Shown: in pieces, positions 19,769 to 58,330 of the stretch
How positions within the stretch are numbered: the stretch's first letter is position 1
Layout of the letters: each line of letters opens with the position of its first letter
Assembly (NCBI GenBank): GCA_964618315.1
Contig: CAZTWQ010000002.1
Location: forward strand, 22,980-86,979
Reading direction: 5' to 3'
DNA: 64,000 bases
Source of the DNA: an uncultured Methanosarcinales archaeon
GTDB taxonomy: Archaea; Nanobdellota; Nanobdellia; Woesearchaeales; JACPBV01
Notes under the pieces: model-generated
The model's input: the letters and a program-made list of their open reading frames with translations, nothing else
Told to the model about the DNA's origin: nothing
Databases searched by the model: none
Program-made: the position numbers and the translations under genes

Positions 19769-19801
19769 ATATTAAAGAAAAATTTTGGAGGATGATATAA
19801 A

Positions 19802-21010: not shown

Positions 21011-21045
21011 TCATAAATTATAATTTAGGGGGGAATGATTGTAAA

Positions 21046-22680: not shown

Positions 22681-22706
22681 TCTTTATTAAATGGAGGTAA
22701 ATTAAA

Positions 22707-23921
22707 ATGACAGGAAACAAAACAACATTTATGTATGCAGGACATATATGTCTTGATATACTTCCAGGTATTCCAGTTCAACAGTCATTAGACTTAGAAA
22801 AAATAGCAAGTCCTGGAGCACTTGTTCAGGTTATTGAACCAATAATCGGTACTGGTGGGCCTGTTTCTAACTCTGGAATTGCAGCTCATATAATTGGGGG
22901 GCAGATAGGGTATACTGCATTACTTAATGGTAAGATTGGTGACGATGATCTTGGGAAGGTTCTCCAAGCAAAAATAGCAGAAAGAGGATTGGATCCAGGA
23001 GCCATGACTGTGGATGGAACAACTAAAACTTCTTATACTGTAGTAATTGGCTTTGACGATACTAATGGGGGTACAAGAGATAGAGTATTTTTTCATGGCC
23101 CTTTAGCAAATGATACATTTGGATTTGAAGATGTTGCATGGGATAGTGCTGGGGAAGCAGATGGAATTCATTTAGGATACCCTCCATTGATGAGGCTGCT
23201 TTATTCTGATGGTGGAGCTACTCTTAGTAAAATTATGAGGTATGCAAAAGAATTAGGTTTAACAACAAGTCTTGATATGGCAGCTTGTGATCCAAATTCT
23301 GATGCTGGAAAAGCTGATTGGGATTCAATTCTTCGAATGTCTTTACCTAGTGTTGATATGTTTACACCTAGTATAGGTGAGACATTGTATATGACTGATA
23401 GGGCGTTGTTTGATGAACTTGATGAAACAAAAACAGATCTTGTTGATCGTGTAGATGGTAATCAAATTTCTTCTGTTTCTGAAAAATTAAGTGGATATGG
23501 GAATGAAATTCCAATTATTGTTCTTAAAATGGGGCATAGGGGAGTATATATGGTAACAGGTAGTAGAGAAAGCCTTGAAAGAATGGGGAGATTTAAACCT
23601 GAAGATCTTGATGCGTGGGCTAATAGAGAATTGTGGCATACTAGTTATCATGCAGAATTCCCGATGGCAACCGGAGCAGGAGATACAACAATTGCAGGTA
23701 TGCATGTTGCAATGCATATGGGATTATCACCTGAAAGTGTTTTAGAAAGAGGCACACTTTATGGTTGGCAATGTGTTGGTGCTCCTGATGCTCTTGGTGG
23801 TCTAAAACCTTGGAGTGAGTCAACGACAGCAGGATTAACAAAAAATCCTCTTGAAGTTAAAGGGAAAGGGTGGAAAGAAGTTGGAGGGGGATTGTATGCT
23901 GGCCCGAGAAACAAAGGTTAA
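22707..23921 (+). CDS. PfkB/ribokinase-family sugar kinase
   Basis: 404 aa with C-terminal GAGDTTIAG signature of PfkB kinases. Confidence 0.75.
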   Translation: MTGNKTTFMYAGHICLDILPGIPVQQSLDLEKIASPGALVQVIEPIIGTGGPVSNSGIAAHIIGGQIGYTALLNGKIGDDDLGKVLQAKIAERGLDPGAMTVDGTTKTSYTVVIGFDDTNGGTRDRVFFHGPLANDTFGFEDVAWDSAGEADGIHLGYPPLMRLLYSDGGATLSKIMRYAKELGLTTSLDMAACDPNSDAGKADWDSILRMSLPSVDMFTPSIGETLYMTDRALFDELDETKTDLVDRVDGNQISSVSEKLSGYGNEIPIIVLKMGHRGVYMVTGSRESLERMGRFKPEDLDAWANRELWHTSYHAEFPMATGAGDTTIAGMHVAMHMGLSPESVLERGTLYGWQCVGAPDALGGLKPWSESTTAGLTKNPLEVKGKGWKEVGGGLYAGPRNKG

Positions 23922-24059
23922 TTCATTTATTTCCTCAATTTTATATAATTTATATATTTAACCTACACATTTTTAAATAGAACTGTATTTTAGTAGATTA
24001 ATTCTTAGTTATTAGCATAGTTAATAATTAGTTGAAATGATGTTATTGGGTTGAATAAT

Positions 24060-25472
24060 ATGGCTGGAACAATTTTAAGTGTAACAAAAAGTGGAAGCAA
24101 TACCCCTACTGAGAGTCTTCCTGAAGAAATTCGTAATAGAGAAACTCACCAGGTAGATATAGGAGCATCATATTATGCTGGTTCATTAACAATTCCAAGC
24201 CTTAATCAGGCATTTAGCGTATTTGATCCTGCACCTATACTAGAAGAAGAGATTGGATTAGTAGGCGATTCTGGAAAAGGGGGAACAAGTAAAGTTTTTA
24301 GAGGTAGTTATGGTGATAGGCAGGTATGTGCTATAAAAGTCATGGATTGGCGAGCACTTTTAGGGCGTTCACCTGATTATATTGAAGATTATCTGCGTAA
24401 ATTTGGTGGAGAGGGCAGAGATGTTCAAACTATGTTTCGTAGGTGCAGTGATGATCCTAGATTAGCAAGGATAATTCAAGTACATAAATATGGGTCTTAT
24501 ATCATACCTCATATTATTATGGAATTTGTTGATGGCACTGACCTTGATAACATTGTTTTAGATAGGACTATCAGTACAAATTTAACTCCTGGACTTAGCA
24601 GAAGTGATGTAGTGAATAATATCTATCCAAGAGCCCCTGTTTCAACCATGGATGAAGTTCATCAATTGCTTAGGTCTTATATTCAATCTTCAGAAGGATT
24701 AGAACTTCTTCATGAACAGAGTATTATCCATAGAGATATTAAACCAGCAAATATATTAGTCGATAGAAGTGGCAATATTAGGATAACTGATCTAGGTCTT
24801 GTGAAATCCCTGGATACAGAAAGAGTAAGAACAAAAGGTACTATTATAGGAACTCCTGTTTTTATGTCTCCTGAACAGATAAATATGGCTCATAATAGCA
24901 GAGAATTGACTGTGCAAAGTGATACTTATTCATTTGGGGGTACAATGTTTTATACCCTTACAGGGCAATATGCACATTCTTTTTCTGATGCAGATACTTC
25001 AACAACTAAGGCAATGTGCATTGTAGGTAATGTAGCTGGAATTAAAGGATTTGATATATTAAGTGATGAACTTGGAGCAAGATTAGAATATTCATTTGGT
25101 CCTATAAAAGATTGGTGTTTAGAATATGACCCAGTTGATAGGCCTACTACAAAAGCAAGGACTTATGCTATTATTGGAGCTGCTGTAGAATTGGGTGTGG
25201 AACCAGAACATATTAGATCATATTCATATGTAGAGCAGGACGATGTTTCTGAATTAGTAGCAGATGTATATTCTTGGACTGATTCCAGAAGAAAAGAATT
25301 GGTAGTATCAGGCCTTAAGCATGCAGGGCATACAGATGTTATGGATGCATATGAAACAGCTCTTAATCAAACTGCATATTCTGAAGTTGATACAAGCAAG
25401 CTAAAACTTTCTGAAAGATTAACATTAGCTGCTAATGCAGTTATAAATATAATGTCTGGTAGCAATCAATGA
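24060..25472 (+). CDS. Hanks-type Ser/Thr protein kinase with uncharacterised C-terminal domain
   Basis: GKGGTSKVF Gly loop, CAIKVM, HRDIKPANIL, TDLG, and SPE motifs. The first ATG is at 24060; the track starts at a TTG at 24051. Confidence 0.85.
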   Translation: MAGTILSVTKSGSNTPTESLPEEIRNRETHQVDIGASYYAGSLTIPSLNQAFSVFDPAPILEEEIGLVGDSGKGGTSKVFRGSYGDRQVCAIKVMDWRALLGRSPDYIEDYLRKFGGEGRDVQTMFRRCSDDPRLARIIQVHKYGSYIIPHIIMEFVDGTDLDNIVLDRTISTNLTPGLSRSDVVNNIYPRAPVSTMDEVHQLLRSYIQSSEGLELLHEQSIIHRDIKPANILVDRSGNIRITDLGLVKSLDTERVRTKGTIIGTPVFMSPEQINMAHNSRELTVQSDTYSFGGTMFYTLTGQYAHSFSDADTSTTKAMCIVGNVAGIKGFDILSDELGARLEYSFGPIKDWCLEYDPVDRPTTKARTYAIIGAAVELGVEPEHIRSYSYVEQDDVSELVADVYSWTDSRRKELVVSGLKHAGHTDVMDAYETALNQTAYSEVDTSKLKLSERLTLAANAVINIMSGSNQ

Positions 25473-25536: not shown

Positions 25537-25557
25537 ATAAGGTTTATAAACAAACAT
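25537..25557 (+). promoter_or_regulatory. asd promoter box
   Basis: ATAAGGTTTATAAACAAACAT. It forms an inverted repeat with 14555-14575, and an AGGTGA Shine-Dalgarno site lies before the asd ATG. Confidence 0.5.
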
Positions 25558-28853: not shown

Positions 28854-29210
28854 TTATCTCGTCAATTCTACATTAGTATATGCTTCCCATGTTGTACCTG
28901 GTGATTGATCAAGATAATAACCTATAGGCGAATTACAAACTTGCTCACCCATAAATAGCCCCAGATGTAATTCAATATCATCGCTTTGTCCAAATCCATG
29001 TTTTACATAATCTGTTAGATATAATAATCTTGGTCTTAGAAGCTCTGGTGCATCTTCAGGTATTTCTGCTACTTTTCCATGTATAATAAAGTTACATACC
29101 TTTGATGGTTTTGTATCTCTACGGATTAAAAGAACATCTGTTCCAGTCGGAAGATGCGCTAATTCATCAATACTTCCAACTTTATTCAATTTAAGATGCG
29201 CAGCATGCAT
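28854..29210 (-). CDS. hypothetical protein (atypical composition)
   Basis: 118-aa ORF, Lys-poor, no family recognised. Confidence 0.4.
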   Translation of the reverse strand: MHAAHLKLNKVGSIDELAHLPTGTDVLLIRRDTKPSKVCNFIIHGKVAEIPEDAPELLRPRLLYLTDYVKHGFGQSDDIELHLGLFMGEQVCNSPIGYYLDQSPGTTWEAYTNVELTR

Positions 29211-32240: not shown

Positions 32241-32252
32241 TATTATCATGAT

Positions 32253-32310
32253 GTCCAATATTAGACATTTATGTTTATATTGTTTTATTTAAGTCAATAA
32301 CTTTATAAAT
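32253..32310 (+). promoter_or_regulatory. arg promoter/operator module 1 (upstream of argF)
   Basis: GTCCAATATTAGAC-ATTTAT-GTTTATATTGTT...GTCAATAACTTTATAAAT. It has the same architecture as the modules at 35241 and 46400. Confidence 0.6.
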
Positions 32311-34416: not shown

Positions 34417-35241
34417 ATGGATAAGATATACAAGAAAGCGGAAGTGTTGATCGAAGCATTGCCCTATATCCAGGAATATTCTGGAAAGATTTTTGTTATA
34501 AAGTATGGCGGTAATGTGATGGTTGATGATGATACAAAAAAATCCATCATAGGTGATATAGCTTTGCTTCGTCATGTTGGGATCTTGCCTATAATTGTCC
34601 ATGGTGGCGGACCTGATATAAACAAGGAAGCTCAAAAAGAGCATATCATTCCTAAATTTATCAAAGGTTTAAGGTATACAGATGAAAAAACAATGAAGAT
34701 TGTCAAAAGAGTTACTGGTGATATAAGCAAAGAGATCATAGATATGCTTAAAGATGAGAAATGCAAGGCAATTAATGTAACTTCTGGATTGATAAAGTCT
34801 AAAGTTCGTAGTAAAGAATTAGGATTAGTCGGAGATGTTGTAAGCATAAATGAAAAGAAAATATTGGCTAAACTAAAGAAAGGAATTATTCCAATCATAA
34901 GTCCATTGGGTTATGATGGTAAAAACTTTAACAATATAAATGCAGATACTGTCGCAACTAAAATAGCAGAATCTGTTAAGGCAGAAAAACTGACTATATT
35001 GACCAATGTTGAAGGTGTTTATGAAGAAGGTAACCTTATCAGCCACCTAAGTATAGATGATGTCAAGAAAGGAATTAAGAAAGGCATAATCAGCCGTGGA
35101 ATGATACCTAAGGTTAAGGCTTGTGTCCATGCTATCAACAAAGGAGTTAAAAAAGTTCATCTTATAGATGGATTGCATAAACATGGTTTGTTATTAGAGA
35201 TATTTACTGATACTGGTATTGGTACTGAGATTGTTAAATAG
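34417..35241 (+). CDS. argB: acetylglutamate kinase
   Basis: VIKYGGN and HGGGP motifs, 274 aa. Confidence 0.9.
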   Translation: MDKIYKKAEVLIEALPYIQEYSGKIFVIKYGGNVMVDDDTKKSIIGDIALLRHVGILPIIVHGGGPDINKEAQKEHIIPKFIKGLRYTDEKTMKIVKRVTGDISKEIIDMLKDEKCKAINVTSGLIKSKVRSKELGLVGDVVSINEKKILAKLKKGIIPIISPLGYDGKNFNNINADTVATKIAESVKAEKLTILTNVEGVYEEGNLISHLSIDDVKKGIKKGIISRGMIPKVKACVHAINKGVKKVHLIDGLHKHGLLLEIFTDTGIGTEIVK

Positions 35242-35298
35242 TCTAGTATTGGACATTAATGTCTAATCTGTCTATTTCTAGTCAATAACTTTATAAAT
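35241..35298 (+). promoter_or_regulatory. arg promoter/operator module 2 (upstream of argD)
   Basis: GTCTAGTATTGGAC-ATTAAT-GTCTAATCTGTC...GTCAATAACTTTATAAAT. The 14-bp box is the exact reverse complement of the box in module 3. Confidence 0.6.
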
Positions 35299-38712: not shown

Positions 38713-39162
38713 ATGAAAGCATTAGTCGCTTATTATTCAAGAACAGGAAATTCTAAAAAAATAGCCTTAGAGATAGCTAAGAAGCTAAATGCTGACATAG
38801 ATGAGATCAAAGACAAGAAGAAAAAAGGGATATTTGGTATGGTATGGTCATGCAGGCAGGCTATCAAAAGAAAATCCTCTTTGATTGATTATTCTAAGGA
38901 TGCTTCTGATTATGATCTTGTAGTTCTTGGAGGACCTGTATGGGCATTTAACCTTCTTCCACAACTCAGAAAATACCTTGAAGAGAATAAGATCAAAAAG
39001 CTGGGTTTTTTCCTGACTTATGGGGGCAATCCTGGAAAAAGCTTTGAACAGGCTGATAATCTGAAAAAGACAATAGCTACAGCAGGTTTTATAGATAAAG
39101 ATATTAGGGCTGGAAAGTATAAAGATAATTTGAATAAGTTTGTTAAAGAATTGAGTTTTTGA
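38713..39162 (+). CDS. flavodoxin-like protein
   Basis: MKALVAYYSRTGNSKK N-terminus, 149 aa, 2 nt after argG. Confidence 0.55.
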   Translation: MKALVAYYSRTGNSKKIALEIAKKLNADIDEIKDKKKKGIFGMVWSCRQAIKRKSSLIDYSKDASDYDLVVLGGPVWAFNLLPQLRKYLEENKIKKLGFFLTYGGNPGKSFEQADNLKKTIATAGFIDKDIRAGKYKDNLNKFVKELSF

Positions 39163-39172
39163 TATTCTTATA
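39055..39172 (+). repeat. 118-bp direct repeat, copy A (3' end of flavodoxin-like gene plus 10 nt)
   Basis: Base-for-base identical to 39881-39998, checked by hand. Confidence 0.95.
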
Positions 39173-39272
39173 ATTCAAACTGACAGTTGGATGTTTGATT
39201 GAGTTGATAAATTTCTGGATAAGGCCAAAAAACAAAAGAAATTTAAATAAATTACCATTCTTGAATAGTAGA

Positions 39273-39836
39273 ATGTCCTATGCACTTTATGATGAAACCC
39301 AAGCAGCTTTAAAAGCTATGAATCTACCCTTTCGTGGACCAATAGGACTCCGACAAAGGTGTGATAGTATACCAGGTAGTGTTTTAGTGGCTGCACTTGT
39401 AGATGAATATCTTGGTCCTTTTGTAAAGTCTGTTGGAGACTTAGTAATTGCAGAGGGACATTCATCATCTGCAGGACATGGAATCACCACATATGGAGGT
39501 AGTGGATCAGTTCAGATCGTTCTTAGTGATCTATATCATGGATATGTTTTTAGACAAGCAATTCAAGCGCATAAAGGTAGACGTGAACGGGCTGTTGGTG
39601 ATTTAGCTAATAGTAGTTTCGAAACCAATCCAGCTCAAATAATTAGAAGATATGGTCTTGATGCTAGTGGTAATGATCAGTTTAATAATCCATTTGGTGA
39701 TACATTTTATACAGTAGACTCAATCAAGGCAGCAATAAATCTGGCTGTTGAAAGACGTATAGCTGAGCTGGTAGCAGAAGACGATAAAGAACATCTGGGT
39801 GGTTTAGATCCTAATAAATACCTACTCCAAACTTAA
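39273..39836 (+). CDS. hypothetical protein (atypical composition) in the 708-bp insert
   Basis: 187 aa from the ATG at 39273, with a TATA-like AAATTTAAATAAATT about 25 nt upstream. The track's TTG start at 39195 adds a Lys-rich leader unlike the rest of the protein. Confidence 0.5.
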   Translation: MSYALYDETQAALKAMNLPFRGPIGLRQRCDSIPGSVLVAALVDEYLGPFVKSVGDLVIAEGHSSSAGHGITTYGGSGSVQIVLSDLYHGYVFRQAIQAHKGRRERAVGDLANSSFETNPAQIIRRYGLDASGNDQFNNPFGDTFYTVDSIKAAINLAVERRIAELVAEDDKEHLGGLDPNKYLLQT

Positions 39837-39880
39837 TAGCTCAATATTTAATCTATTGATCAAATAAATTCTATGATTAA

Positions 39881-39998
39881 GATAATCTGAAAAAGACAAT
39901 AGCTACAGCAGGTTTTATAGATAAAGATATTAGGGCTGGAAAGTATAAAGATAATTTGAATAAGTTTGTTAAAGAATTGAGTTTTTGATATTCTTATA
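39881..39998 (+). repeat. 118-bp direct repeat, copy B (orphan 3' gene fragment)
   Basis: Identical to 39055-39172. It encodes the last 35 codons of the flavodoxin-like gene with no upstream gene body. Confidence 0.95.
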
Positions 39999-40025
39999 TA
40001 ATAGAATAAAGAAATAATATTTAAT

Positions 40026-41288
40026 CTAAATTCCAAACGTTTGCTTAAATTGGTTAACCATAGTATTAGGCACAAGATAACCTGAAACATCAGTATGAGT
40101 TTCTGCAAAGCAACCATATATCAATCCATAGGTCTCTTTTGCTTCCCTAACTAATTTGCTTACATCTTTTGTGTCTTTTGGTTCTGGTGTAAGCTGCATA
40201 ACTCTTGTTCTTTCTGCTGTAGGTATTAACCAATCCTGATAAACATCACAATAAAGTTCTGGGTGGGGTGATTTATTTGTTCCTTCTTTTTCATCCCTAA
40301 CATTAAGATCTCTTTGAACATTTTCAGAAGTTGGCATGCCATGGGCATTATCATATAAAGAATTAAAATGAACAATCCATGCAGGCCAGACAACTTCCCT
40401 AGCGTATGCTGCCAGATCATAATCTCCAGCTTGTTTTGGTCCATCTGCTCCAACAGCTACATGACCTATATCCATATGCGCATAAACTTGGCAAGGGCTA
40501 TTAGTTTGTATAATCCTATGCATCCTGTTCATCTGGTCTATCCCTACTGGAGCCATCCCATCATGCTGGTACATAAGTTCAGTTGTACTGGAAATACCAT
40601 AATCATTTCTGTTCAATGCAATTGCAGTCTGAATGTTTAATGCTTCTGCTTCTGTTATATTTACTGAACTATCCACCTTATCAGGTAATTTCCATCCAAA
40701 GTGACCTGCCCATTGATTGATTGAATATGTAGTCATATGCCTTTCAGGAAAGGCAGTTAAAACCCTATGGCCTCCAACAGTTCTTCCTCCAACTGCATCT
40801 GCACACCTAATCAAATTTCTATATGCCCTAGTTGCTTTTGTTTGTTGCAACACATCAAATTCAAGATGCCCTGTTTTATCTAATGCAAGCATCCTTGTAT
40901 AAAGAAATTGACCTGTTCCAGTACCCTGTATCTTAAGGTCATATTTTTGAGCTAATCTTTTGATAAGATCCACTCTCTCCTGAAGCCATCCTGGAAATTC
41001 ACCTTGAAAATCAAGACCATTAAAGATTCCTGGCTTTTCGGGATTTTCAAATATATCTTCAGCCAACTCAACTTGAAGTATGTCTGCATCTAATTGGGGT
41101 AGAAAAAGATTAGCTTCAATCTCATCTAAAGATAACCTATCGGGCCTTATAAATCCTTTATCATCAGACTGCCTGTTTATACCATATGCATAAGTGTTTA
41201 ATCCTGGAACTATAATAGGTCCTTGCTGCATCTCTGGGTCTTCCTCTTTATGGAAGGTTATGCATTGTTCTAGAGTTGGTTTTGACAT
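40026..41288 (-). CDS. hypothetical protein, possibly TIM-barrel sugar isomerase/epimerase-like (weak)
   Basis: 420 aa, Lys-poor. His/Asp-containing strands (AHMDIGHV, WIVHFNS) resemble metal-dependent sugar isomerases; this is unverified. Confidence 0.45.
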   Translation of the reverse strand: MSKPTLEQCITFHKEEDPEMQQGPIIVPGLNTYAYGINRQSDDKGFIRPDRLSLDEIEANLFLPQLDADILQVELAEDIFENPEKPGIFNGLDFQGEFPGWLQERVDLIKRLAQKYDLKIQGTGTGQFLYTRMLALDKTGHLEFDVLQQTKATRAYRNLIRCADAVGGRTVGGHRVLTAFPERHMTTYSINQWAGHFGWKLPDKVDSSVNITEAEALNIQTAIALNRNDYGISSTTELMYQHDGMAPVGIDQMNRMHRIIQTNSPCQVYAHMDIGHVAVGADGPKQAGDYDLAAYAREVVWPAWIVHFNSLYDNAHGMPTSENVQRDLNVRDEKEGTNKSPHPELYCDVYQDWLIPTAERTRVMQLTPEPKDTKDVSKLVREAKETYGLIYGCFAETHTDVSGYLVPNTMVNQFKQTFGI

Positions 41289-41334
41289 TTTTTATCCTGC
41301 ATATATTTTTAATAAAAAAGTAAAAATAAAAAAA

Positions 41335-42126
41335 CTAACCTAAAATTGATTTCATACTAATCAATAACTCTTCAAGTTTAGGCGTACCAGAAACAGGAAA
41401 AGTAACTGTTCTTGAACCAGAATCAGTAGTTGTTAAATGTAATCTAGAGTCATACATTCGGCGTTTTCTTGATGCTACTACTTTCTCTGCTACGTTTCTT
41501 GTTGTTGCTGCTTCAGCTACTTTTTTTGCTGCTGCTTCTTCATCTTCTGGTGTTGTATCCTTATAATAAGATTGGTTAGGAAAAATCCCTAATGCTCTGT
41601 CAACAAGTGCGTCTACCATATACTCGTTTGATAATCCTAATTCTCTTACTCCAGCTAATCTTTTTAATTTACTTAGTGCCTCTCCTGCTACAGTATCAGT
41701 AACTGAGCTTGAAAAACTAACTGTAACATAATGGTGATCACTAGCATCCCTCACACTTACAGTAGTACCTGGTAATGCATAGACACCCACTCTACTTACA
41801 CCATTGGTTGATTCTAATCGCTTACCCCCTGCTTGTGAATCTTCATAAGACACATTTAAACCAACCTTATCTCCAACTCCAGCTAGATATTGTTCAAACC
41901 TTGCATTCATAGCATCCCTAACTCCATCATTCATCCAGACTTGTATCATTGGTGCAGGATCAGTTGGTTTTTTTGAATCTTGTTGTGCTGGTTCAGCACC
42001 ATTATAATTCTGTCGATGCCAATCTGCAAAAATCTGATCACGTTCTGCCCTAAATGCCCATACCTCAGGACCTTTATTGTTATATACTATCTGTGCTGCT
42101 GGCGCACTTTGAGTTTCTTGTACCAT
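41335..42126 (-). CDS. hypothetical protein (atypical composition)
   Basis: 263 aa from the ATG at 42126, which is preceded by GGAGGGG. The track's TTG start at 42141 lies at the Shine-Dalgarno site. Confidence 0.5.
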   Translation of the reverse strand: MVQETQSAPAAQIVYNNKGPEVWAFRAERDQIFADWHRQNYNGAEPAQQDSKKPTDPAPMIQVWMNDGVRDAMNARFEQYLAGVGDKVGLNVSYEDSQAGGKRLESTNGVSRVGVYALPGTTVSVRDASDHHYVTVSFSSSVTDTVAGEALSKLKRLAGVRELGLSNEYMVDALVDRALGIFPNQSYYKDTTPEDEEAAAKKVAEAATTRNVAEKVVASRKRRMYDSRLHLTTTDSGSRTVTFPVSGTPKLEELLISMKSILG

Positions 42127-42270
42127 TATTATCCCCTCCAAAAATATTAATATTTAATGAAATTAAATGATGGTATTTAAATCTTTCTATCGTCTCTATT
42201 TTAAAGTAGTTAATGGTGGAAAGGTTTATAAATATAAATGAAACTGTAATGAAAAATAAGGGGATAAAAA

Positions 42271-43476
42271 ATGCCATCAGTAGTCATAGAAGGAGCAGGG
42301 AATGCAGGAAGAGCAGTACATGCACCTAGATTTCTTGAAGCAGGTTATAAGGTTACATTAGTAGATGTCAATCCAGGTCTTGTAGGTCATCTTAAAAAAG
42401 AAGGAAAGTATACTGTTGAGGTAGTTGGAGATGGTGCAAAAACATATGATGTAAGTGGTTTTGAGATGCTTCACGGCAATGAAGATAGGGATGCAGTTGT
42501 AGCAAGGATTAGAGATGCTGATCTTGCGATAACTGCAGTAGGTGAAAGAGCACTTCCTTTTATATATCCTGTTTTTGCAGAAGCATTAGGACAAAGAGGC
42601 AGACCATTGAGTGTTATTCTTGCAGAGAACATGGGTCAGCCTGAAACTGTATTTAGACAAGGAATTAATGATATTAATCCAGCAGCAGCTTCTGAAGACA
42701 TGTTATATCTTACAGGTGCGTGTATCGGCACTATGATGCCATTACCTGTTAAAGGGGAATTCTCAGTTGTCAGAAGAGAAGCATATGATAAGGTAATCAT
42801 AGCAAATCAAGCTTTTCCAGATGGCTTTCCACAAGTGCCTAACCTGGAAGGAGTTCACAATTTTCCAGCACACCTAAGTGAAAAATTATTAGTTCATAAT
42901 GGGGGGCATTCTGCATTGGCTTATTTTGCACACCAATATGGTATTGATTATATCTGGGAGGCTGCAGCCAGATCAGATCTTATGGGATATGCAAGAGCTG
43001 TTATGGACTTAGCAGGAGAAGTTCTTGTCAGGGAACATCCTGATGATTTTGATGAAGCCTATATGCAAGCCCACACCGCTGATCTAGAAGCGAGATTTGG
43101 AAATCAAAGATTAGGCGATACAGTTTACAGAGTCGGAAAAGACCTATTGAGAAAATTAGGACCTACAGATAGACTCGCCCCCACAGTCAGATTAGCACAA
43201 AAATATGGACTTGATCCTGATCCAGTTTTAAGGGCAATTGGTGTTGGAATATTCTTTTATGATGCAGTAGACGAAGATGGAAAGCCTCATGCAGGAGATG
43301 CCGCTGTAAGGGATATATTCATGAATGAGGGACACATGGATGATGGTGATGGACATAGTGGTGTAAGAAATGTATTGACAGCTGTCTGTAATTTTGACCC
43401 TCAAGTAGATAGTGCCATTATAGATAGAACATATCAACTTGCTGAGGAGTTTAATCAGAGTGTACATTCTAAGTAA
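42271..43476 (+). CDS. mannitol-dehydrogenase-family enzyme, mannitol-1-phosphate 5-dehydrogenase-like
   Basis: N-terminal IEGAGNAGRAV...VTLVDVN parallels MtlD's HFGAGNIGRGF. LVHNGGHSALAY parallels the MtlD central motif. 401 aa. Confidence 0.55.
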   Translation: MPSVVIEGAGNAGRAVHAPRFLEAGYKVTLVDVNPGLVGHLKKEGKYTVEVVGDGAKTYDVSGFEMLHGNEDRDAVVARIRDADLAITAVGERALPFIYPVFAEALGQRGRPLSVILAENMGQPETVFRQGINDINPAAASEDMLYLTGACIGTMMPLPVKGEFSVVRREAYDKVIIANQAFPDGFPQVPNLEGVHNFPAHLSEKLLVHNGGHSALAYFAHQYGIDYIWEAAARSDLMGYARAVMDLAGEVLVREHPDDFDEAYMQAHTADLEARFGNQRLGDTVYRVGKDLLRKLGPTDRLAPTVRLAQKYGLDPDPVLRAIGVGIFFYDAVDEDGKPHAGDAAVRDIFMNEGHMDDGDGHSGVRNVLTAVCNFDPQVDSAIIDRTYQLAEEFNQSVHSK

Positions 43477-44739: not shown

Positions 44740-45345
44740 ATGTTTGGTAAGATAGAATACGCAATAAAACAATTACAAAGAGGAGACTTTATTATTCTTG
44801 TAGATGATGAAAACAGGGAAAATGAAGGCGATCTAGTCATAGCTGCAGAAAAAGCAACACCTTCAAAGCTTAATTATTTTATTAAATATGCTGGTGGTTT
44901 GATGTGCGTTCCTATGTCTGGTTCTAGATTAGATAAATTAGAAATTCCCATGATGGTTAAAGATAGTACAGACAGATTAAATACACCGTTTACTGTTTCT
45001 GTCGATGCTAAAGACAATACATCTACTGGAATGAGTGTCAATGATAGATTAGAAACTTTAAAAGTATTGCTTGATGACTCAAGTAAATCAGGTGATTTGT
45101 CAAGACCAGGTCATATGTTCCCTTTACGATCTTCTGACAATGGTGTTTTTGATAGGGAAGGTCATACTGAAGCGTCTGTTGATCTATGTAGATTAGCAGG
45201 TTTAAAGGAAATTGCTGTTATCGCAGAGATAATGAATGAAGATGGTTCAATGGCAAAGCTGCCTAATCTTGAAAAGTTTGCTAAAGAACGAAAACTTGAG
45301 ATCTATACTATAAAAGATCTGATTGAATATAGAAAGAGTAATTAA
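44740..45345 (+). CDS. ribB: 3,4-dihydroxy-2-butanone-4-phosphate synthase
   Basis: DDENRENEGDLV and GHTEAS motifs. Confidence 0.9.
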   Translation: MFGKIEYAIKQLQRGDFIILVDDENRENEGDLVIAAEKATPSKLNYFIKYAGGLMCVPMSGSRLDKLEIPMMVKDSTDRLNTPFTVSVDAKDNTSTGMSVNDRLETLKVLLDDSSKSGDLSRPGHMFPLRSSDNGVFDREGHTEASVDLCRLAGLKEIAVIAEIMNEDGSMAKLPNLEKFAKERKLEIYTIKDLIEYRKSN

Positions 45346-46370
45346 GTTGGGAAATGCCTGCTATATCTTTCAAATAATCTCCCCCATAAATCAAATTTTT
45401 CTTCTGTTGTTCTATTTGTCCTAAATGGGTTACCAGAAGAGATACCTTCTCTTAGAGGTCTTACCAATTGAACCATTGCTTTAGTTCCTCTTTCTGTTAG
45501 GGATAAACTAACAAGATCATAAGGGGTAAGTTTAGTGATAACTTCATCACTTTCTAATCTTCCAAGGGTCTTATATAAGTGTGATCTATCTGTTCTTAAC
45601 CTACCATTTAATTGACTAACAGTCATAAAAACATTGTCACCCCTAAGGAGACTTACTACTTGTTCAGAAGTTCCGCTAAGACCGCTTACTTCTGGATTTG
45701 TTAATCTATAAAGCTTTCCAGATTTAATTTCAGGCATTTCACCATCAGCAGATACAAGACCTTGTTCAATAAGCCTGGCGCATAGTTTATATGCTTGGCT
45801 AGGATTTAATTCAACAATACCCCTATCACTTTTTGTACTAGCACTTAACTGAGAATAGGTTTGAGTGCCCCCTTCATGTAAATGCTCCAATGCTTCTGCT
45901 CGACTTAAAGTTGAATTGCCTTGGCCTGTTGCAGAACCAAATGTTGCTGATAGGCATATGTCTAATTCATCTGCCTTTTCTAGAAGGAAATATAATGGTC
46001 CTACCATCCCCCTATATTCTTCGTTAGCATACCACCCATTTACAGATTCTTTGCCCCTAGTGGGATGTTTTTGTGTAGTTGTTCCTTGATCAATAAATGC
46101 AATTGATCCTTGCCCTCTTCTTGCAAAACTGGTACTCATCTCATGGATTGTTCCCTTCTTAAAATATTGCCCAGCAAAAGGGTATCTTTCTCTTAACTCA
46201 TTAGCTAAACTACCTTCAGAAACAGGCCATGAACTTGATCTATTATACATTTCAAATACTAAAGCCCTTCTTTCATCTGCTAAGCTCCATATAGTACTAC
46301 ATAATCGAGCATATCCATTATTTTGCGCCATCTGCCATTGGAAACTTATTCTTTTTTTAAATCTTACCAT
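45342..46370 (-). CDS. hypothetical protein with repeated winged-helix-like segments (atypical composition)
   Basis: 342 aa with several wHTH-like stretches (e.g. AYKLCARLIEQGLVS, LYKTLGRLESDEVITK). Its stop codon overlaps the ribB stop. Confidence 0.45.
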   Translation of the reverse strand: MVRFKKRISFQWQMAQNNGYARLCSTIWSLADERRALVFEMYNRSSSWPVSEGSLANELRERYPFAGQYFKKGTIHEMSTSFARRGQGSIAFIDQGTTTQKHPTRGKESVNGWYANEEYRGMVGPLYFLLEKADELDICLSATFGSATGQGNSTLSRAEALEHLHEGGTQTYSQLSASTKSDRGIVELNPSQAYKLCARLIEQGLVSADGEMPEIKSGKLYRLTNPEVSGLSGTSEQVVSLLRGDNVFMTVSQLNGRLRTDRSHLYKTLGRLESDEVITKLTPYDLVSLSLTERGTKAMVQLVRPLREGISSGNPFRTNRTTEEKFDLWGRLFERYSRHFPT

Positions 46371-46399
46371 TATGAGTACTAAATAGTAGTTAGATTATT

Positions 46400-46457
46400 G
46401 TCCAATACTAGACATTAATGTCTAATCTGTCTATTTCTGGTCGATAGCTTTATAAAT
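46400..46457 (+). promoter_or_regulatory. arg promoter/operator module 3 (upstream of argH)
   Basis: GTCCAATACTAGAC-ATTAAT-GTCTAATCTGTC...GTCGATAGCTTTATAAAT. It contains the perfect 16-bp palindrome TAGACATTAATGTCTA at 46409-46424. Confidence 0.6.
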
Positions 46458-47657: not shown

Positions 47658-48185
47658 ATGAACAAGCTAAAGATCACTAAGATAGACAAGGAGTTGTATA
47701 ATTTTAAGGGATTTGACCACATAGGGTGCCATAAATCAGGATGTGACGATGCTTGTTGTATACATGGTGCTGATTTTGACAAAGAATCTTATGACCTTGT
47801 ATTTAAGTATAAAGACCTTATAGAAAAAGAGACAGGAATCAAAGTTAAAGACTGCTTTACAGGAGAATGGTATGATGATCCTGAATTTCTAGGCGGGAAT
47901 GCGACTGAAAGCAAGGTTTTAAGTTCTGGTTTTTGTGCTTTTCATACACCTAATGGGGAAGGTTGTATTTTGTATAAGCTAGTAAATGAAAAAGGATTAC
48001 CTAGAAGATTGATACCAACTATCTGCAGGTTATATCCATTGACATGGGGAAATCAAGAATTATTTATCGCTGAAGACCTCTACTCTAAATGCAATTGCAC
48101 CCATAAGAATTGTTCTTCTAAGAATATATTAGAGACACAGAAAGAAGAAGTTGAAGATATATTTGATATAGAATTAGATCAGTAA
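47658..48185 (+). CDS. Cys-rich protein (YkgJ/UPF0153-like zinc/iron-chelating domain)
   Basis: 175 aa with GCHKSGCDDACCIHG and further Cys clusters. It starts 7 nt after argH. Confidence 0.4.
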   Translation: MNKLKITKIDKELYNFKGFDHIGCHKSGCDDACCIHGADFDKESYDLVFKYKDLIEKETGIKVKDCFTGEWYDDPEFLGGNATESKVLSSGFCAFHTPNGEGCILYKLVNEKGLPRRLIPTICRLYPLTWGNQELFIAEDLYSKCNCTHKNCSSKNILETQKEEVEDIFDIELDQ

Positions 48186-49426
48186 GACTCTCCAGTAAAA
48201 CTTACTGGAGGATATGGCAAAACTTCAAGCTTTCGCCTTCCTAATTCAGTCATAAATGCAGTTTCTTGTTCTTGTGCAAGTGTTGGATTCTCAACTATTG
48301 GTCTTTCACCATTTACTCTAACTAATTTACGTGGTACATAAATTGTTGGCTTGTTTTCATTACCAAATATCCCTGTATCTACAAAATCTATCGATTCTTG
48401 AACATGATTTCCTGATTCAAATCCTGCTCCTAAGTTATATGAATGTGGAACTCCTGAGTCTCTTAATATTTCAACAACTCTTCTCAGTTCTGGCATACCT
48501 ATGCTTCTTTTCATTTTTCTCATAGATTCTTGTGAAAATGTTTCTGCTCCAACATCGACATCATCGATTATGCCTTTTAGCTCTGCTATATCAGAACCTA
48601 CTCTTAGTATGTCTTCTGGATGTGCAAAAACAAATATTTTAGCACCTGGACGATGCATCTCTCTGACTTCTCTTGCAAATCCCAAGAAATTATTGAAGTC
48701 ACCCCCCATCCCCCTGTTGTTTCCTATAAAAACATCAAAATCAACAACATCATTATAATCATCATCACCTAATATGCCTCGATATACCTGATGTTGATTT
48801 TTAAGATCATCAAGTGTTCTTTCTACTATTCTCCCCTGACCATCAACAAATAGACAACCAGGACATCTCTCTCCACACCCCTTAGTTGCAGAATATGTTA
48901 CTACATTATATCCTGTCTTTAATACGTATGGGGATATTATAGGAACATGACCTAAAACATTAACAAGACTTCTTGCATCTTGTTTTCTTTCCTGACTTGT
49001 TTTTAGTTTTCCTAATATAGCCAGAACTTCATCCAGTGAACTAAATTCTGTTGTTTCATAAGGATGCCCCTCAAACTTAACATCACCAATTTCATCTATA
49101 GCTCTATCAATCAATACCTCTGCCAATGATAATTTTCTGTGTTCAGAATCAACATATTTTGGATGGTCTGGCGTTAGTCTCTCAACATATCCTCTATGAA
49201 ATTGTCTATAACCAAAAATACCCCCACCACCTAATGCATGATAAACTCTAATCCCTTCATCTATACCATGATTCAGGTATTTCAATGATCCATTCCTATA
49301 GAAATTACCCCAGATCATACCTCCAGTACCTACTTCAATACGATAGTTTAATGGACCATGATAATTATCATGTACTCTGACTTTTCTGAGTGTGATCGAA
49401 AAATCATCAAATTTAATTGTTGCCAT
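48179..49426 (-). CDS. radical-SAM-like protein with ~180-aa N-terminal extension (atypical composition)
   Basis: 415 aa with CGERCPGC (CX3CX2C followed by LF) at about residue 185. It overlaps the stop region of the convergent core gene by 7 nt. Confidence 0.45.
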   Translation of the reverse strand: MATIKFDDFSITLRKVRVHDNYHGPLNYRIEVGTGGMIWGNFYRNGSLKYLNHGIDEGIRVYHALGGGGIFGYRQFHRGYVERLTPDHPKYVDSEHRKLSLAEVLIDRAIDEIGDVKFEGHPYETTEFSSLDEVLAILGKLKTSQERKQDARSLVNVLGHVPIISPYVLKTGYNVVTYSATKGCGERCPGCLFVDGQGRIVERTLDDLKNQHQVYRGILGDDDYNDVVDFDVFIGNNRGMGGDFNNFLGFAREVREMHRPGAKIFVFAHPEDILRVGSDIAELKGIIDDVDVGAETFSQESMRKMKRSIGMPELRRVVEILRDSGVPHSYNLGAGFESGNHVQESIDFVDTGIFGNENKPTIYVPRKLVRVNGERPIVENPTLAQEQETAFMTELGRRKLEVLPYPPVSFTGESY

Positions 49427-51195: not shown

Positions 51196-52986
51196 TTATT
51201 TTCCATTTAGATTTAATCTATAGACTGGGACTCCACTTTTGCCTGTTGATTGGGTTTTTACAAATCTTGATTTTGCCATATCCTCTTCTGAAACACCAGG
51301 TAATTGATAAACAAGAATATTTCTTAGTTTTCTTTTTCCAGCTGCCCTTATTGCAGGCGGCAATATTTCAGCAAGTACCTTCGAATTAAGATTTGCAAAA
51401 TCATAAGCATGAGTGTGTCTGACCAATACAGAGTTTCTTGCATAAGATCGATCTACATTACCCCCCCTCATAAAAAGTGGGTCTGGGTCGATATCGTAAA
51501 AACCAACAATTTCCTGATTATCATCTGAAATAACTGTATATATATGCCCTTTAGCTAATGATACTTGCAGAATATCTGCACTTTTAGATACTGCATTAAT
51601 TGCTAATATCTCTTGTTCTACAGCTGCTAATAATAATGTAGGTAGATCAGCAAACGTAGCCCTCCTTACTGAGAGATCTTTTGTTTTTCCAGGGTGGGGT
51701 AAATCAGGGTTTGCATATTGGATAAATGGTATGGTCTCTCTATCATCATTATGTCTAAAGAAAGAATAGGGGTTAGGGCATGCTTCTGCATCACTTCTAT
51801 GGAAAATACGCTCGTGATCAAATGAATCTGATATTCTTGCCCTTAGTTCATTTAATGCAGTAATTTTCTCAAATAAGCCTGTAGATATATATCTTCCATA
51901 ATGATCCATCAAACTTGTGTATGCTTCCATTGTAGAATCAGTATAATCCATCCATGCTTTTCTAAATGGAGAACCCTCACTAGGGTCTTTTAATTTAGTA
52001 CCTTCAGCTGCTCGAAGTAATGTAGCAAATGTATCTGTTGAGGAGTATTCACCTTCTCTAAGTGGATTGTCAGCCAATTGACCAAAAGGAGTATTTGCTC
52101 TTTTACACATAGCACTCATTATTGTTTGTGCTTCAGTTATACTCTCCCCCATATCAGTTTTTGCTCCCTCTATATCAACCATGATTTCCATAGCTAGCTC
52201 TTCATATTCCCTCATCAAAGTATATGCTTCTTCAGCTCCACCTATCAATCTAGTGGATCTTGTAGTGATGTCTGCAATTATTTCAAGGTCTTTAGGTGTT
52301 AGGTTAAATTTATCAGACTGTTCTTGTACAAATGAGATTCTATCCTCACTAAATTCCCTTAAATTAGATAAATATTCATCAAATTTGGATTTATCATCCT
52401 GATCGATTGCTGTTGATACCAGAATTTCAAGCAAGAAGTAATGTGCACGCATAGCAACAGCCATTGAAGGACCTGTCGATTCCATCTCAAAATGCATATC
52501 TCCTTCAGCTGCAATTCTTTCTAATGAATCTGTTAGTGTATTGCAATGTTCTGCAGCATAATCTAATGTTCTTGAACTAGCAGTAAAACTATGGTACATA
52601 TCTAAATAAGGATCAGGTGTATGTGCTAATGTATCTTCAGTGAGATGTCTAGTAAGCAGTTCTGCAGCATCAGTTATCTCGAGTTCAAATGCTTCCTGGA
52701 GGTGTTCATCATGCAATATGTCAGTATCTATACTATCTCTTTGTTTTGTTGGAACATAGTATCCTGTTCCATCATTACCAGCATATACAAGAACTCCTTT
52801 TGTTTTGGATGTTATTGGTATTTTACTCAACAATTTTTGTGTTGGGTCACTACCTTCTAAACAATGAAGCCCATATAATCTGGATTCTGTGCTTACTCTT
52901 GGATCGAATAATAATGTAGTTTCATCAGGGTTAGCCCCCTTACTACCAGTATTACGTCCACCATTTCTTCTTTTATTTTTACCCAT
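51196..52986 (-). CDS. large hypothetical protein with GNAT-like C-terminal region (atypical composition)
   Basis: 596 aa from the ATG at 52986, with a basic Gly/Arg-rich N-terminus. The C-terminal ~170 aa start with VRRATFADLPTLLLAAVEQE, a GNAT-like beta1-alpha1 pattern (weak). Confidence 0.5.
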   Translation of the reverse strand: MGKNKRRNGGRNTGSKGANPDETTLLFDPRVSTESRLYGLHCLEGSDPTQKLLSKIPITSKTKGVLVYAGNDGTGYYVPTKQRDSIDTDILHDEHLQEAFELEITDAAELLTRHLTEDTLAHTPDPYLDMYHSFTASSRTLDYAAEHCNTLTDSLERIAAEGDMHFEMESTGPSMAVAMRAHYFLLEILVSTAIDQDDKSKFDEYLSNLREFSEDRISFVQEQSDKFNLTPKDLEIIADITTRSTRLIGGAEEAYTLMREYEELAMEIMVDIEGAKTDMGESITEAQTIMSAMCKRANTPFGQLADNPLREGEYSSTDTFATLLRAAEGTKLKDPSEGSPFRKAWMDYTDSTMEAYTSLMDHYGRYISTGLFEKITALNELRARISDSFDHERIFHRSDAEACPNPYSFFRHNDDRETIPFIQYANPDLPHPGKTKDLSVRRATFADLPTLLLAAVEQEILAINAVSKSADILQVSLAKGHIYTVISDDNQEIVGFYDIDPDPLFMRGGNVDRSYARNSVLVRHTHAYDFANLNSKVLAEILPPAIRAAGKRKLRNILVYQLPGVSEEDMAKSRFVKTQSTGKSGVPVYRLNLNGK

Positions 52987-53188
52987 AATTAATAAAAACA
53001 ACGATTTCTTTTTAAAGTTTTCCCTAAAGAGTAGTTAAATAATTAAGGTATTGGGATCTTTACAAACATTTAAACATTTTCATATTGACGATAAATTTGT
53101 GATAAGCTGGTGACAAAAAAGTCAGTTTTAATAAAACAAAAGTTTTTTATATGCATATCTCTAATTTAGATAAAAAGAGTGTAAAATA

Positions 53189-54454: not shown

Positions 54455-54880
54455 ATGGTCGATATATACTTAGCAGCTACAGATTCACTTGATATAGTTG
54501 GTTCTGAAGATGATGGATCACATATTGATCTGATAGGAAGTTGTTTAGAACAGGCTATATTGAGTATGATAGGTGCTAAAAGGTTTGCTGATTGCGATAC
54601 AGGCAGAACTTATTCATATTCCAGACGTGTTTCTGGTTCTCTTGATGGAAGAGACGTAACTGTCATTCTTGCACTTTTTCGAGAGGGTGAGAAAGCACAT
54701 GTTGATGTTTTTACAGATCTAGAAGAACTTGCTTTACCTGATTGTCCTGATGATCTAGGTCTTGATAATGCAATTAGTACAGGATATGGAATATATTTGG
54801 ATTTTGTTAATCAATTAGAAGCTAAGAGAAGAACTCAGGATAATCTTGATACATACTTCCCTCATGCCCATGGTTATTAG
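54455..54880 (+). CDS. hypothetical acidic protein (atypical composition)
   Basis: 141-aa ORF, no family recognised. Confidence 0.4.
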   Translation: MVDIYLAATDSLDIVGSEDDGSHIDLIGSCLEQAILSMIGAKRFADCDTGRTYSYSRRVSGSLDGRDVTVILALFREGEKAHVDVFTDLEELALPDCPDDLGLDNAISTGYGIYLDFVNQLEAKRRTQDNLDTYFPHAHGY

Positions 54881-54958
54881 AACTTTTACAAAGTAATATT
54901 TCTATAATAACTAATATCAACAGTTAAATTTAAAACCCTTTTAGTAATTCTCTCTAAT

Positions 54959-55714
54959 ATGCCTAAACAAGATAAATTAATAATCCTTGACCTGGATGGT
55001 ACTGTCTGGGATGTTGGTGGTTTTAATATTGAAGCCTCTAAAGCTGTTTTTGATGGACACAATCGTGAAGGAGACATCAGAAATGCTAATTCCCATGGAA
55101 GCACCATGTATCTAGTCAATAAGGCATTGATGAGACTTGTAGTTGATGCACCAACTTATGGGCATATAACTGGTGCAATGGGGAGATGGATAAACAGAGG
55201 CAAAGAATTACTAGATGATGACCCCAATTCATTAGAGCCTTTCAGACTTTATTCAGGTGTTACGGATTTACTAAGTTTACTTGATAAAACTGCTCATCTA
55301 GGTATAGTATCAGGTAATCATCGTGACTTAGCTCAACCCATCCTAGAGTATTTTAGTCTAGAAGACATTTTTACACCTGAATCACAAATATATCAGGATG
55401 GTTTTATAGGCAATGGCAGGATAAGTTCAATAGCAGCACGTGCTAGCGGCATAATTATCTGCATGATGAGACAAAGACAAAAAGGCATCAAATTCAATGA
55501 AGTATTTTATGTAGGCGATGCACCAACAGACATTGAATCAGCTAATAAGGCAGACAATGTAGTATCCGAGCTTTCAGGAATCAGAGTTAGGGGAGTTGCC
55601 GTTGCCCATACCCACACGATGAATCAACTTTTAGCTCAAAACCCAGCTTATTGTTTTGAAAACCTCAAGGATCATGAACATGTCGCTAATCAAATACTTT
55701 ATGGAACTCAGTAG
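54959..55714 (+). CDS. HAD-superfamily hydrolase/phosphatase
   Basis: Motif I LILDLDGTVWD and motif IV YVGDAPTDIESA. Confidence 0.7.
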   Translation: MPKQDKLIILDLDGTVWDVGGFNIEASKAVFDGHNREGDIRNANSHGSTMYLVNKALMRLVVDAPTYGHITGAMGRWINRGKELLDDDPNSLEPFRLYSGVTDLLSLLDKTAHLGIVSGNHRDLAQPILEYFSLEDIFTPESQIYQDGFIGNGRISSIAARASGIIICMMRQRQKGIKFNEVFYVGDAPTDIESANKADNVVSELSGIRVRGVAVAHTHTMNQLLAQNPAYCFENLKDHEHVANQILYGTQ

Positions 55715-55741: not shown

Positions 55742-55770
55742 GTGACCACAATAAATATAAGTGTGGTCAC
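55742..55770. terminator. 9-bp-stem hairpin between convergent HAD and Fic genes
   Basis: GTGACCACA-(11 nt)-TGTGGTCAC. It overlaps the Fic stop codon and is built from the same TGTGACCACA box found in the Fic promoter. Confidence 0.4.
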
Positions 55771-56711: not shown

Positions 56712-56723
56712 ACTAATATATAG

Positions 56724-56765
56724 TGTGACCACATATTTAAACTTTTCTATTTTATGTGACCACAT
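56724..56765 (-). promoter_or_regulatory. two direct TGTGACCACAT boxes bracketing the Fic TATA box
   Basis: 11-bp repeats at 56724-56734 and 56755-56765, 31 bp apart, with a TTTAAATAT TATA-like element between them on the minus strand. Confidence 0.4.
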
Positions 56766-56815
56766 AATATCATATAACCAATACATTTAAAAAAACAAAA
56801 TAATTCTTAAATACT

Positions 56816-57610: not shown

Positions 57611-57651
57611 ATTACAAAATTATTTAAATAAAAGCAAATATTTATATATTA

Positions 57652-57984
57652 ATGAATGATAATGAATATATAATAAAATATTTAAGGAAATATAAAAAAG
57701 AAGATATCTTAATAGATAAACACGCTGAATTAAGGGCTAAACAAAGGGACCTCGATTTAGAAGAAGTATATTATAATTTGTTAAACCCTTCCAAAAGATT
57801 ATCATTCACAAATAAACTTGAAGAAGAAAGCGATGGTTTAGAAAAATTTAAATGTTATTTTGGCTATAGTAAAACACAATGTCAAATTTACATAATAAAA
57901 TTTAGTGACAAATTAATCATCAAAACAATAATAAAATTAAATAAAAGATGGCAGAAAAGGGCTGAAAAATATGGAAAAATTTAA
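57652..57984 (+). CDS. DUF4258-like small protein (putative toxin)
   Basis: 110 aa with the HAELRAKQRDL pattern typical of DUF4258 (from memory). It overlaps the next ORF. Confidence 0.4.
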   Translation: MNDNEYIIKYLRKYKKEDILIDKHAELRAKQRDLDLEEVYYNLLNPSKRLSFTNKLEEESDGLEKFKCYFGYSKTQCQIYIIKFSDKLIIKTIIKLNKRWQKRAEKYGKI

Positions 57985-58327: not shown

Positions 58328-58330
58328 AGA

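Follow-up and report, generated by a model that had tools for sequence, protein, structure and literature searches.

A 708-bp single-gene cassette bracketed by a duplicated flavodoxin gene 3′ end in a woesearchaeal genome: a possible case of Campbell-type integration and excision

Introduction

Integrative elements that occupy the 3′ ends of genes and bring a substitute 3′ end with them, including prophage e14 and phage 21 of E. coli and the islands at tRNA gene 3′ ends, leave an intact target gene on one side and an orphan fragment of that gene on the other, with the flanking direct repeats constituting the attachment-site (att) identity block. Prophage e14, for example, is flanked by icd and icdC, a functional gene and its orphan 3′ end (PMC13626634). 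Such elements measure 10–100 kb and encode their own integrase. Here we describe a far smaller arrangement of the same kind in an uncultured marine DPANN archaeon (Woesearchaeota), found in a 64,000-nt stretch of DNA (“the window”; GenBank assembly GCA_964618315.1, contig CAZTWQ010000002.1, positions 22,980 to 86,979), to whose numbering all coordinates refer. A 708-bp cassette (C), carrying a single open reading frame (ORF) termed X, lies between two perfect 118-nt copies (R) of the 3′ end of a flavodoxin-like gene, giving the order U-R-C-R-D, where U and D are the upstream and downstream sequences. As in e14-type elements, the target is intact on one side, an orphan fragment lies on the other, and R corresponds to the att identity block; the insert, at 708 bp or, in a second case, 674 bp, carries neither an integrase of its own nor any other recombinase.

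Cis-mobilizable elements (CIMEs) of Firmicutes are defined by direct repeats that include a gene 3′ end and by the absence of integration genes (PMC5704250). They retain attL and attR and are devoid of integration and transfer genes, as is the cassette. CIMEs are decay products of integrative and conjugative elements or integrative and mobilizable elements, moved by the integrase of a related element, whereas no such partner or integrase was seen among the ORFs scanned here, and they are one to two orders of magnitude larger.

Integron gene cassettes are likewise single-gene mobile units that are inserted one by one. They are usually promoterless, however, and depend on an imperfect palindromic attC site together with IntI and attI; no attC-like site or integrase was found at the locus described here, where X carries a TATA box of its own and a duplicated end of a host gene forms both flanks. 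Transposons, insertion sequences (ISs) and miniature inverted-repeat transposable elements possess terminal inverted repeats (TIRs), generate target duplications of 2–15 bp and, except for the last, encode a transposase, in contrast to the 118-bp duplication of host gene sequence, without TIRs, seen here. Phage morons and toxin-antitoxin islets resemble the cassette as self-contained promoter-gene-terminator units between genes that are adjacent in relatives, but morons lack duplicated host gene ends at their borders, and the present locus shows no phage context. The cassette shares the topology of gene-3′-end integrative elements but is neither an integron cassette nor a transposon.

Finally, in laboratory pop-in/pop-out procedures with suicide plasmids, a single crossover duplicates the region of homology around the insert, and recombination between the duplicates reverses the event. 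The topology in archaea and bacteria alike is that of U-R-C-R-D, but the procedure is an engineered one, and we know of no description of natural, population-level pop-in/pop-out with a unit as small as 826 bp.

Structure of the cassette and its flanking repeats

The two R copies (39055–39172 and 39881–39998) match at 118 of 118 positions (blastn self-comparison, E = 1.5e-55) and are the sole perfect long direct repeat within the window. The original prediction, made from the sequence alone, described a perfect 118-bp repeat around a 708-bp cassette with a single ORF and a TATA-like box, and this description proved exact. Its account of the first copy was correct for the stop codon and the 10 nt beyond, and one nucleotide too long for the coding part, which comprises 105 nt and not 106.

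The flavodoxin-like gene, whose start codon lies 2 nt past the stop codon of argG, is intact, and the protein encoded is identical in 18 contigs. The second R copy is an orphan that cannot be translated, the in-frame codon directly upstream of it being TAA; an intact upstream gene and an orphan 3′ fragment had both been anticipated. The T5 tract GAGTTTTTGA in the first copy is likely an archaeal terminator. In the cassette itself, the short gap between the TATA-like box TTTAAATA and the ATG of X implies a leaderless or near-leaderless mRNA, and a comparable TATA-like motif precedes other genes of the window (e.g., GGTTTAAATA before 14814). Judging from this layout, X is probably driven by its own TATA box, with the flavodoxin T-tract of the second R copy serving as its terminator. 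A convergent gene, 40026–41288 (−), ends 27 nt beyond that copy. The imperfect palindrome at 39990–40007 sits between two convergent genes, is retained intact in the empty site described below, and may merely be a bidirectional terminator.

No TIRs of the cassette and no inverted repeats within R were found, and a Pfam scan of approximately 55 window ORFs, including all ORFs near the cassette, revealed no integrase, transposase or other recombinase domain. These results uphold the earlier statement that integrase, transposase and TIRs are absent, as well as the argument that 118 bp is well beyond the length of any target duplication made by transposition; R is host gene sequence.

Occupied and empty alleles in metagenome assemblies

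The complete U-R-C-R-D arrangement was recovered base for base in at least five independent metagenome assemblies, from several projects and different assemblers. The occupied contigs include L001 (ERZ23491197, an 87-kb scaffold of the European Nucleotide Archive), L003 (Joint Genome Institute, JGI, 3300028177) and L100 (JGI 3300037807), together with the MEGAHIT k141 contigs L005 and L006 from ERZ27245991 and ERZ27250210. Because a k of 141 exceeds the 118 nt of R, assembler logic suggests that both junctions needed real 141-mers spanning R plus its flanks. In other assemblies (L002/L008, L004, L099 and L101) R is broken or filled with Ns, as is expected of a repeat.

An empty site, which had been proposed as a check, was found in contig L010 (JGI 3300037805), where the flavodoxin gene with a single R is followed directly by the downstream gene (U-R-D). 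Exactly R plus C, or 826 bp, is missing relative to the occupied contigs, which is the difference that pop-in/pop-out predicts between U-R-C-R-D and U-R-D. To its right, the empty site of L010 is flanked by 6108 nt identical to the window; to its left, 1442 of 1444 nt agree, the two mismatches falling at the tip of the contig. The sample is a sibling of those that yielded the occupied contigs L100 and L101. Moreover, L098, a 9.4-kb MEGAHIT k141 contig (ERZ27246012), stops precisely at 39881, where the second R copy begins. A unitig would be expected to break there if the reads contained both contexts, U-R-D and C-R-D, and the endpoint fits the coexistence of occupied and empty alleles. Taken singly, each line is doubtful; jointly, L010 and L098 make a natural presence/absence polymorphism likely. 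In terms of e14 and the tRNA islands, L010 would represent the empty attB, supported by the L098 endpoint and subject to the possibility of misassembly in L010 that is weighed below. The sampled genomes are approximately 99.96–100% identical across 12 kb, and X-bearing contigs under 2 kb exist in metagenome assemblies.

A second, older case in the same window

A search for other duplicated gene 3′ ends, which had also been suggested, was productive: a window-wide protein-level scan for orphan gene ends returned two cases only, the cassette locus (39055–39998) and a second at 57560–58426. In the latter, the 3′ end of an arginase/agmatinase-family gene is duplicated around an insert of 674 bp. 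The copies are 78.8% identical over 99 nt (57560–57656 vs. 58331–58426, sensitive self-comparison), rising to 91% in the core at 57565–57608. The insert encodes two small proteins with matches to DUF2283 (E = 6.6e-10; 39.4 bits vs. a Pfam cut-off of 23) and DUF4258 (E = 0.004; 17.8 bits, below the cut-off of 25). The pair, which had no PADLOC match, appears toxin-antitoxin-like by these family assignments, and the second case resembles toxin-antitoxin islets in carrying it.

The 14-aa orphan is 100% identical at the protein level to the C-terminus of the arginase-family protein. Four sense codons differ, all by synonymous third-position G to A changes, and the stop codon has changed from TAG to TGA. 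The chance of four random substitutions all being synonymous is approximately 0.003, and this purely synonymous pattern indicates that the orphan did not decay neutrally in place. The copies look like the 3′ ends of two diverged functional alleles that would have been joined by recombination, since synonymous-only differences are expected if the orphan and functional ends derive from two functional alleles. The icd and icdC copies of e14 also differ only synonymously. The second case was present in all 24 contigs read. Codon usage was considered as a means of telling which copy is the resident one and was indecisive (5/7 vs. 1/7 G-ending codons, P ~0.05).

Repeats in two other contigs were rejected as orphan gene ends: those of L065 are IS-related, and those of L021 involve no gene end. 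Two bacterial observations are of a related kind. In a Bacteroidales metagenome-assembled genome (MAG; L054, JAAYKX010000054.1), an orphan of 13 aa at 5626–5664 exactly reproduces the C-terminus encoded by gene 4251–5591, which lies just upstream; here, too, a gene 3′ end is duplicated. On a contig from the candidate phyla radiation (CPR; L011, JBDREO010000010.1), a perfect 78-nt direct repeat (12722–12799/13041–13118) surrounds a small GIY-YIG gene at 12746–12985 (−) and may be a comparable small bracketed insertion; the same contig also holds a 58%-identical flavodoxin.

Relatives, the sister strain and the history of the locus

ArgG of the window is 85–86% identical to that of Woesearchaeota MAGs from the Yap Trench (L016 and L025); the flavodoxin-like gene also has Woesearchaeota relatives, and the locus possesses TATA-type promoters and an Alba gene. 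These features assign the window to a DPANN archaeon. In both MAGs the backbone reads argJ-argB-argD-argC-argG, ribD-ribB, argH and argS. The gap between argG and ribD is approximately 30 nt in L025, and nothing homologous to the cassette lies between these genes in L025 or L016. In the window, argG and ribD are separated by 4.9 kb occupied by the flavodoxin gene, X and three further genes. Since argG adjoins ribD in the relatives, all five of these genes, the last three of which are Lys-poor like X, are insertions into a conserved backbone. Other small inserts occur in the relatives at these same joints; in L016, for instance, argG is followed by a small pair of genes. Flavodoxin homologs at ~60% identity occur in unrelated contexts, CPR bacteria included, and were of no help in rebuilding the ancestral locus.

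The genes of the window fall into two compositional classes. Class A is a Lys-rich backbone (8–17% Lys), while class B, which includes X, is Lys-poor (3–5% Lys), with more Arg than Lys, high GC at first codon positions, very low GC at third positions and, for the most part, no family assignment. Five class B genes were searched for (X, and those within 40026–43476, 45342–46370 and 48179–49426), and none of the five was present in the relatives' loci examined. A recent import of class B from a GC-rich donor was rejected, as both classes have the same synonymous codon preferences. Comparable Lys-poor genes were noted in L017 and L018.

The only close relative of X is P0002 (X′; 206 aa), which is encoded on a 10.4-kb contig of a sister strain (JGI 3300072015) whose sample also holds the window-type genome. 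There, the gene order is argC-argG-X′-flavodoxin, placing X′ on the opposite side of the flavodoxin gene from X. The sister ArgG is 98% identical (395/402), ending in KRKN rather than KRKKI, and the flavodoxin is 94% identical; no gene with a recombinase Pfam match was recorded on the contig. Because X and X′ share only 55–58% identity while ArgG and flavodoxin are so well conserved, X-type genes turn over far faster than the backbone. The two genomes belong to nearly the same species, yet their X alleles are very divergent and flank the flavodoxin gene on opposite sides. This pattern is at odds with vertical descent of one locus and agrees with repeated, independent placement of X-family genes beside the flavodoxin gene. 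It had been stated that the insertion reading would fall if the cassette ORF proved to be a conserved syntenic neighbor of the flavodoxin-like gene in relatives without the duplication, and this is half the case: X′ does adjoin flavodoxin, yet on the other side and at 55–58% identity. It had also been argued that the absence of divergence between the R copies indicates a recent or actively maintained event. The lack of divergence does date the cassette event to after the separation from the sister strain; beyond that, it reveals little about age, and by itself it is no sign of active maintenance, in a population that is itself so nearly uniform.

The cargo gene

Among 5.8e9 proteins, X had homologs in a single cluster besides its own, that of P0002, and it is nearly an ORFan. 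X and P0002 have long invariant blocks in common, among them the C-terminal DPNKYLLQT, and this speaks for X being a real protein. Exhaustive profile searching across 1.84e9 representatives yielded just one addition, a weak match of ~45 residues within an 808-aa protein. BLASTP confined it to a 22–25-aa motif that recurs in the Golvesin_C repeats of that protein, and the match was judged uninformative as to the function of X. No family match was found in Pfam, NCBIfam, PHROGs, PADLOC or a PDB profile search, and an AlphaFold2 model (predicted local distance difference test, pLDDT, of 33) was uninformative. Neither X nor R had a match in GenBank phages, PLSDB plasmids or IMG/VR, and neither was found in two metagenome scans and one GTDB scan, collections that evidently do not contain the organism.

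Proposed mechanism

We favor, with moderate confidence, the interpretation that the locus holds a small, non-autonomous insertion cassette that is integrated and excised as a whole by Campbell-type single crossover. A circular or circularized DNA of approximately 826 bp would have carried X, its own promoter and a 118-bp copy of the flavodoxin 3′ end. One crossover between this circle and the chromosomal flavodoxin 3′ end would integrate the cassette, keeping the flavodoxin gene intact, placing X behind it and leaving an orphan 3′ fragment that becomes the terminator region of X. Conversely, recombination between the perfect R copies would remove the cassette, restoring the empty site and regenerating the circle. 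Such pop-in/pop-out between R copies explains the occurrence of both alleles in natural populations. Host homologous recombination (the RadA pathway) acting on 118 bp of homology is favored by the absence of a recombinase gene among the window ORFs scanned and of a recombinase-type core in R, and is the most likely catalyst on present sequence evidence. Since the copies are identical, crossover points along R are invisible, and we infer the circular intermediate, the enzyme and the direction of the change, gain or loss, from the arrangement itself. The original prediction of Campbell-type or site-specific integration stands to the degree that the anatomy, the empty site and the second case agree with it.

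Several points weigh against this interpretation. The circular form, or its C-R-C junction, was not observed in the contigs read, and the origin of the first circle calls for an illegitimate joining event that is undocumented. L010 by itself could be a loop-skipping misassembly if its assembly used k < 118, and the sibling-sample contigs L099 and L101 do end within R, which shows that the repeat was not resolved in every case. The search for a recombinase covered the 64-kb window, and one may be encoded elsewhere in the genome. The X homolog beside the sister-strain flavodoxin allows scenarios of rearrangement in situ. Finally, the 13-kb loci of relatives yielded no additional orphan gene ends, so a general process is not in evidence.

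Alternative explanations

The cassette could conceivably be a CIME-like or satellite element, with the R copies representing the attL and attR sites of an integrase (tyrosine or serine type) supplied from another part of the genome or by a virus or plasmid, and the cassette being a decayed remnant or a miniature element mobilized in trans. Its gene-3′-end direct repeats without integration genes match the CIME definition (PMC5704250), e14 presents the same pattern of functional gene and orphan 3′ end, the right edge of R is the center of an imperfect palindrome, and only 64 kb of the genome was inspected. Set against this are the lack of an integrase among the scanned ORFs and of a recombinase match on the sister contig, the lack of an inverted-repeat core in R, and the failure of X and R to match phage, plasmid and IMG/VR collections; moreover, a larger element would need to have shrunk to 708 bp before any divergence arose between the repeats. 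We consider this explanation, the main rival, unlikely.

An in-situ rearrangement would begin with an ancestral argG-X-flavodoxin order, as in the sister strain, followed by placement of a flavodoxin copy upstream of X and deletion of the old copy except for its last 118 bp. With X′ lying between argG and flavodoxin, the two strains' arrangements are indeed near-permutations of two genes. This route needs at least two precise events without any divergence, however, and the 55–58% identity of X and X′, beside 98% for ArgG and 94% for flavodoxin, misfits simple vertical descent. The 2-nt spacing of argG and flavodoxin, which is also present in the empty-site contig, looks old and tight, and the synonymous-only differences of the second case are left unexplained. 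Such a history seems improbable.

Insertion during break repair has the merit that the copies would be identical at birth and that no element-encoded enzyme is required: opposite-strand nicks ~118 nt apart, with overhangs filled in around a captured fragment, would yield a long target-site duplication, and the insertion point does fall at the palindrome between convergent genes. Nevertheless, the junctions display no end-joining signature or filler sequence, and the second case, with copies that differ like diverged functional alleles, is not accounted for. To our knowledge, moreover, no established route in archaea produces fill-in duplications of such length, and we regard this explanation as decidedly improbable.

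A very slim chance attaches to the idea that X is a new kind of recombinase and the 826-bp unit a minimal autonomous integrative element. X is the sole gene carried, and both known X-family genes adjoin the same flavodoxin gene, but X has no similarity to recombinases or to any family, its structure model is uninformative, two clusters among 5.8e9 proteins would be odd for a successful mobile enzyme, and the second case carries a toxin-antitoxin pair instead. Lastly, an assembly artefact through an expanded or collapsed repeat, a reading that had been named in advance as fatal to the cassette and to which the breaks and N gaps inside R lend some color, is effectively ruled out for the cassette structure by recovery of the same arrangement with different assemblers and projects, including k141 contigs in which R is shorter than k.

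Feature coordinates

Table 1. Features of the cassette locus, the second case and the Lys-poor genes, in window numbering.
Feature	Positions	Strand	Description
Flavodoxin-like gene	38713-39162	+	Intact ORF, 149 aa; Pfam Flavodoxin_5 E=2.5e-10, Flavodoxin_4, Flavodoxin_3
R copy 1, attL-like	39055-39172	+	Final 35 sense codons (105 nt) of flavodoxin-like gene, stop codon and 10 nt beyond
Cassette C	39173-39880	+	708 bp, single ORF; exact copy in L001, L003, L005, L006, L100
TATA-like box TTTAAATA	39243-39250	+	Separated by 22 nt from ATG of X; read from sequence, putative function
ORF X	39273-39836	+	187 aa; 3.2% Lys, 5.9% Arg, Arg > Lys
R copy 2, attR-like	39881-39998	+	Orphan flavodoxin 3′ end; 35-aa orphan 100% identical
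Imperfect palindrome ATTCTTATA/TAATAGAAT	39990-40007	.	18 nt, 72% complementary; centered on right edge of R copy 2
Arginase/agmatinase-family gene	56816-57610	+	3′ end duplicated; Pfam Arginase E=4.7e-65
Second case, copy 1	57560-57656	+	Final 14-15 codons and stop of arginase-family gene, AT-rich spacer to next start codon
Second case, cargo	57652-58327	+	Two overlapping small ORFs (110 aa, 118 aa; GC 23%, 29%); DUF2283, DUF4258
Second case, copy 2	58331-58426	+	Orphan encoding MTSKVGAKILVELC and stop; directly upstream of threonine synthase gene 58427-59779
Class B genes	14814-25472, 28854-29210, 39273-43476, 45342-46370, 48179-49426, 51196-53001, 54455-55714, 62134-62514	.	Lys-poor (3-5% Lys), Arg > Lys; high GC1, very low GC3

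Significance for gene flux in DPANN archaea

DPANN archaea have small genomes with a very fluid accessory gene content, and we know of no account of how single genes enter or leave them. The locus displays the gain or loss of a single gene at base resolution, with occupied and empty alleles in near-identical natural genomes, a divergent cargo allele in the sister strain and, 18 kb from the cassette, an older scar of like kind. If sub-kilobase circles do pop in and out by means of the host's own machinery, genes could come and go without any mobile-element enzyme, and mobilome surveys based on integrases or transposases would miss such cassettes. Orphan copies of gene 3′ ends provide a search rule that can be applied to any genome collection.

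A broader generalization, tentative and rather doubtful at present, is that Woesearchaeota gain and lose single accessory genes through recombinase-independent minicircles that employ a gene 3′ end as an address label and the host's homologous recombination for integration. The Lys-poor ORFans scattered among the Lys-rich backbone would be the accumulated product of this process, and the 118-bp case would have been caught before decay of its scar. The cassette provides a clean, testable example of the movement of a single accessory gene in DPANN archaea, with a putative circle as the key intermediate.

Additional features of the window

A number of other features were noted in the window. Between hom (−) and asd (+) lies an 11-kb island whose eight Lys-poor genes code for sugar kinases, xylose-isomerase-like TIM barrels, DUF4432 and a Ser/Thr kinase. 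The hom and asd genes share a promoter motif, ATAAG(A/G)TTTATAAACAAACAT, in opposite orientation at 14555–14575 and 25537–25557, and the 21-nt inverted match at 14555/25537 was rejected as a TIR of the island, being the promoter motif common to hom and asd.

Two copies, 77–83% identical, of a ~165-nt element occur at 13039–13232 (−) and 63227–63420 (−) in the leaders of two membrane/transporter-like genes. The predicted nested structure has 43 pairs, four of which show compensatory double changes, and no Rfam match was obtained even at E ≤ 1; the element is a candidate riboswitch-like RNA. At 61595–61683 (+), an 89-nt Rfam tRNA match (49.9 bits), for which ARAGORN reports none, may represent an intron-containing archaeal tRNA. 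Fic/DOC-domain paralogs with similar N- and C-termini lie 54 kb apart at 1467–2345 (+) and 55767–56786 (−).

Finally, a 61-nt repeat containing a palindrome, TAGACATTAATGTCTA, and a TATA box, CTTTATAAAT, is found at 32250–32310, 35238–35298 and 46397–46457, upstream of the genes for ornithine carbamoyltransferase, argD and argH. It is probably the operator/promoter of an arginine regulon. Its position is kept in the Yap Trench relatives, at 173–242 and 9750–9819 of L016 and at 525–600 and 10555–10630 of L025.

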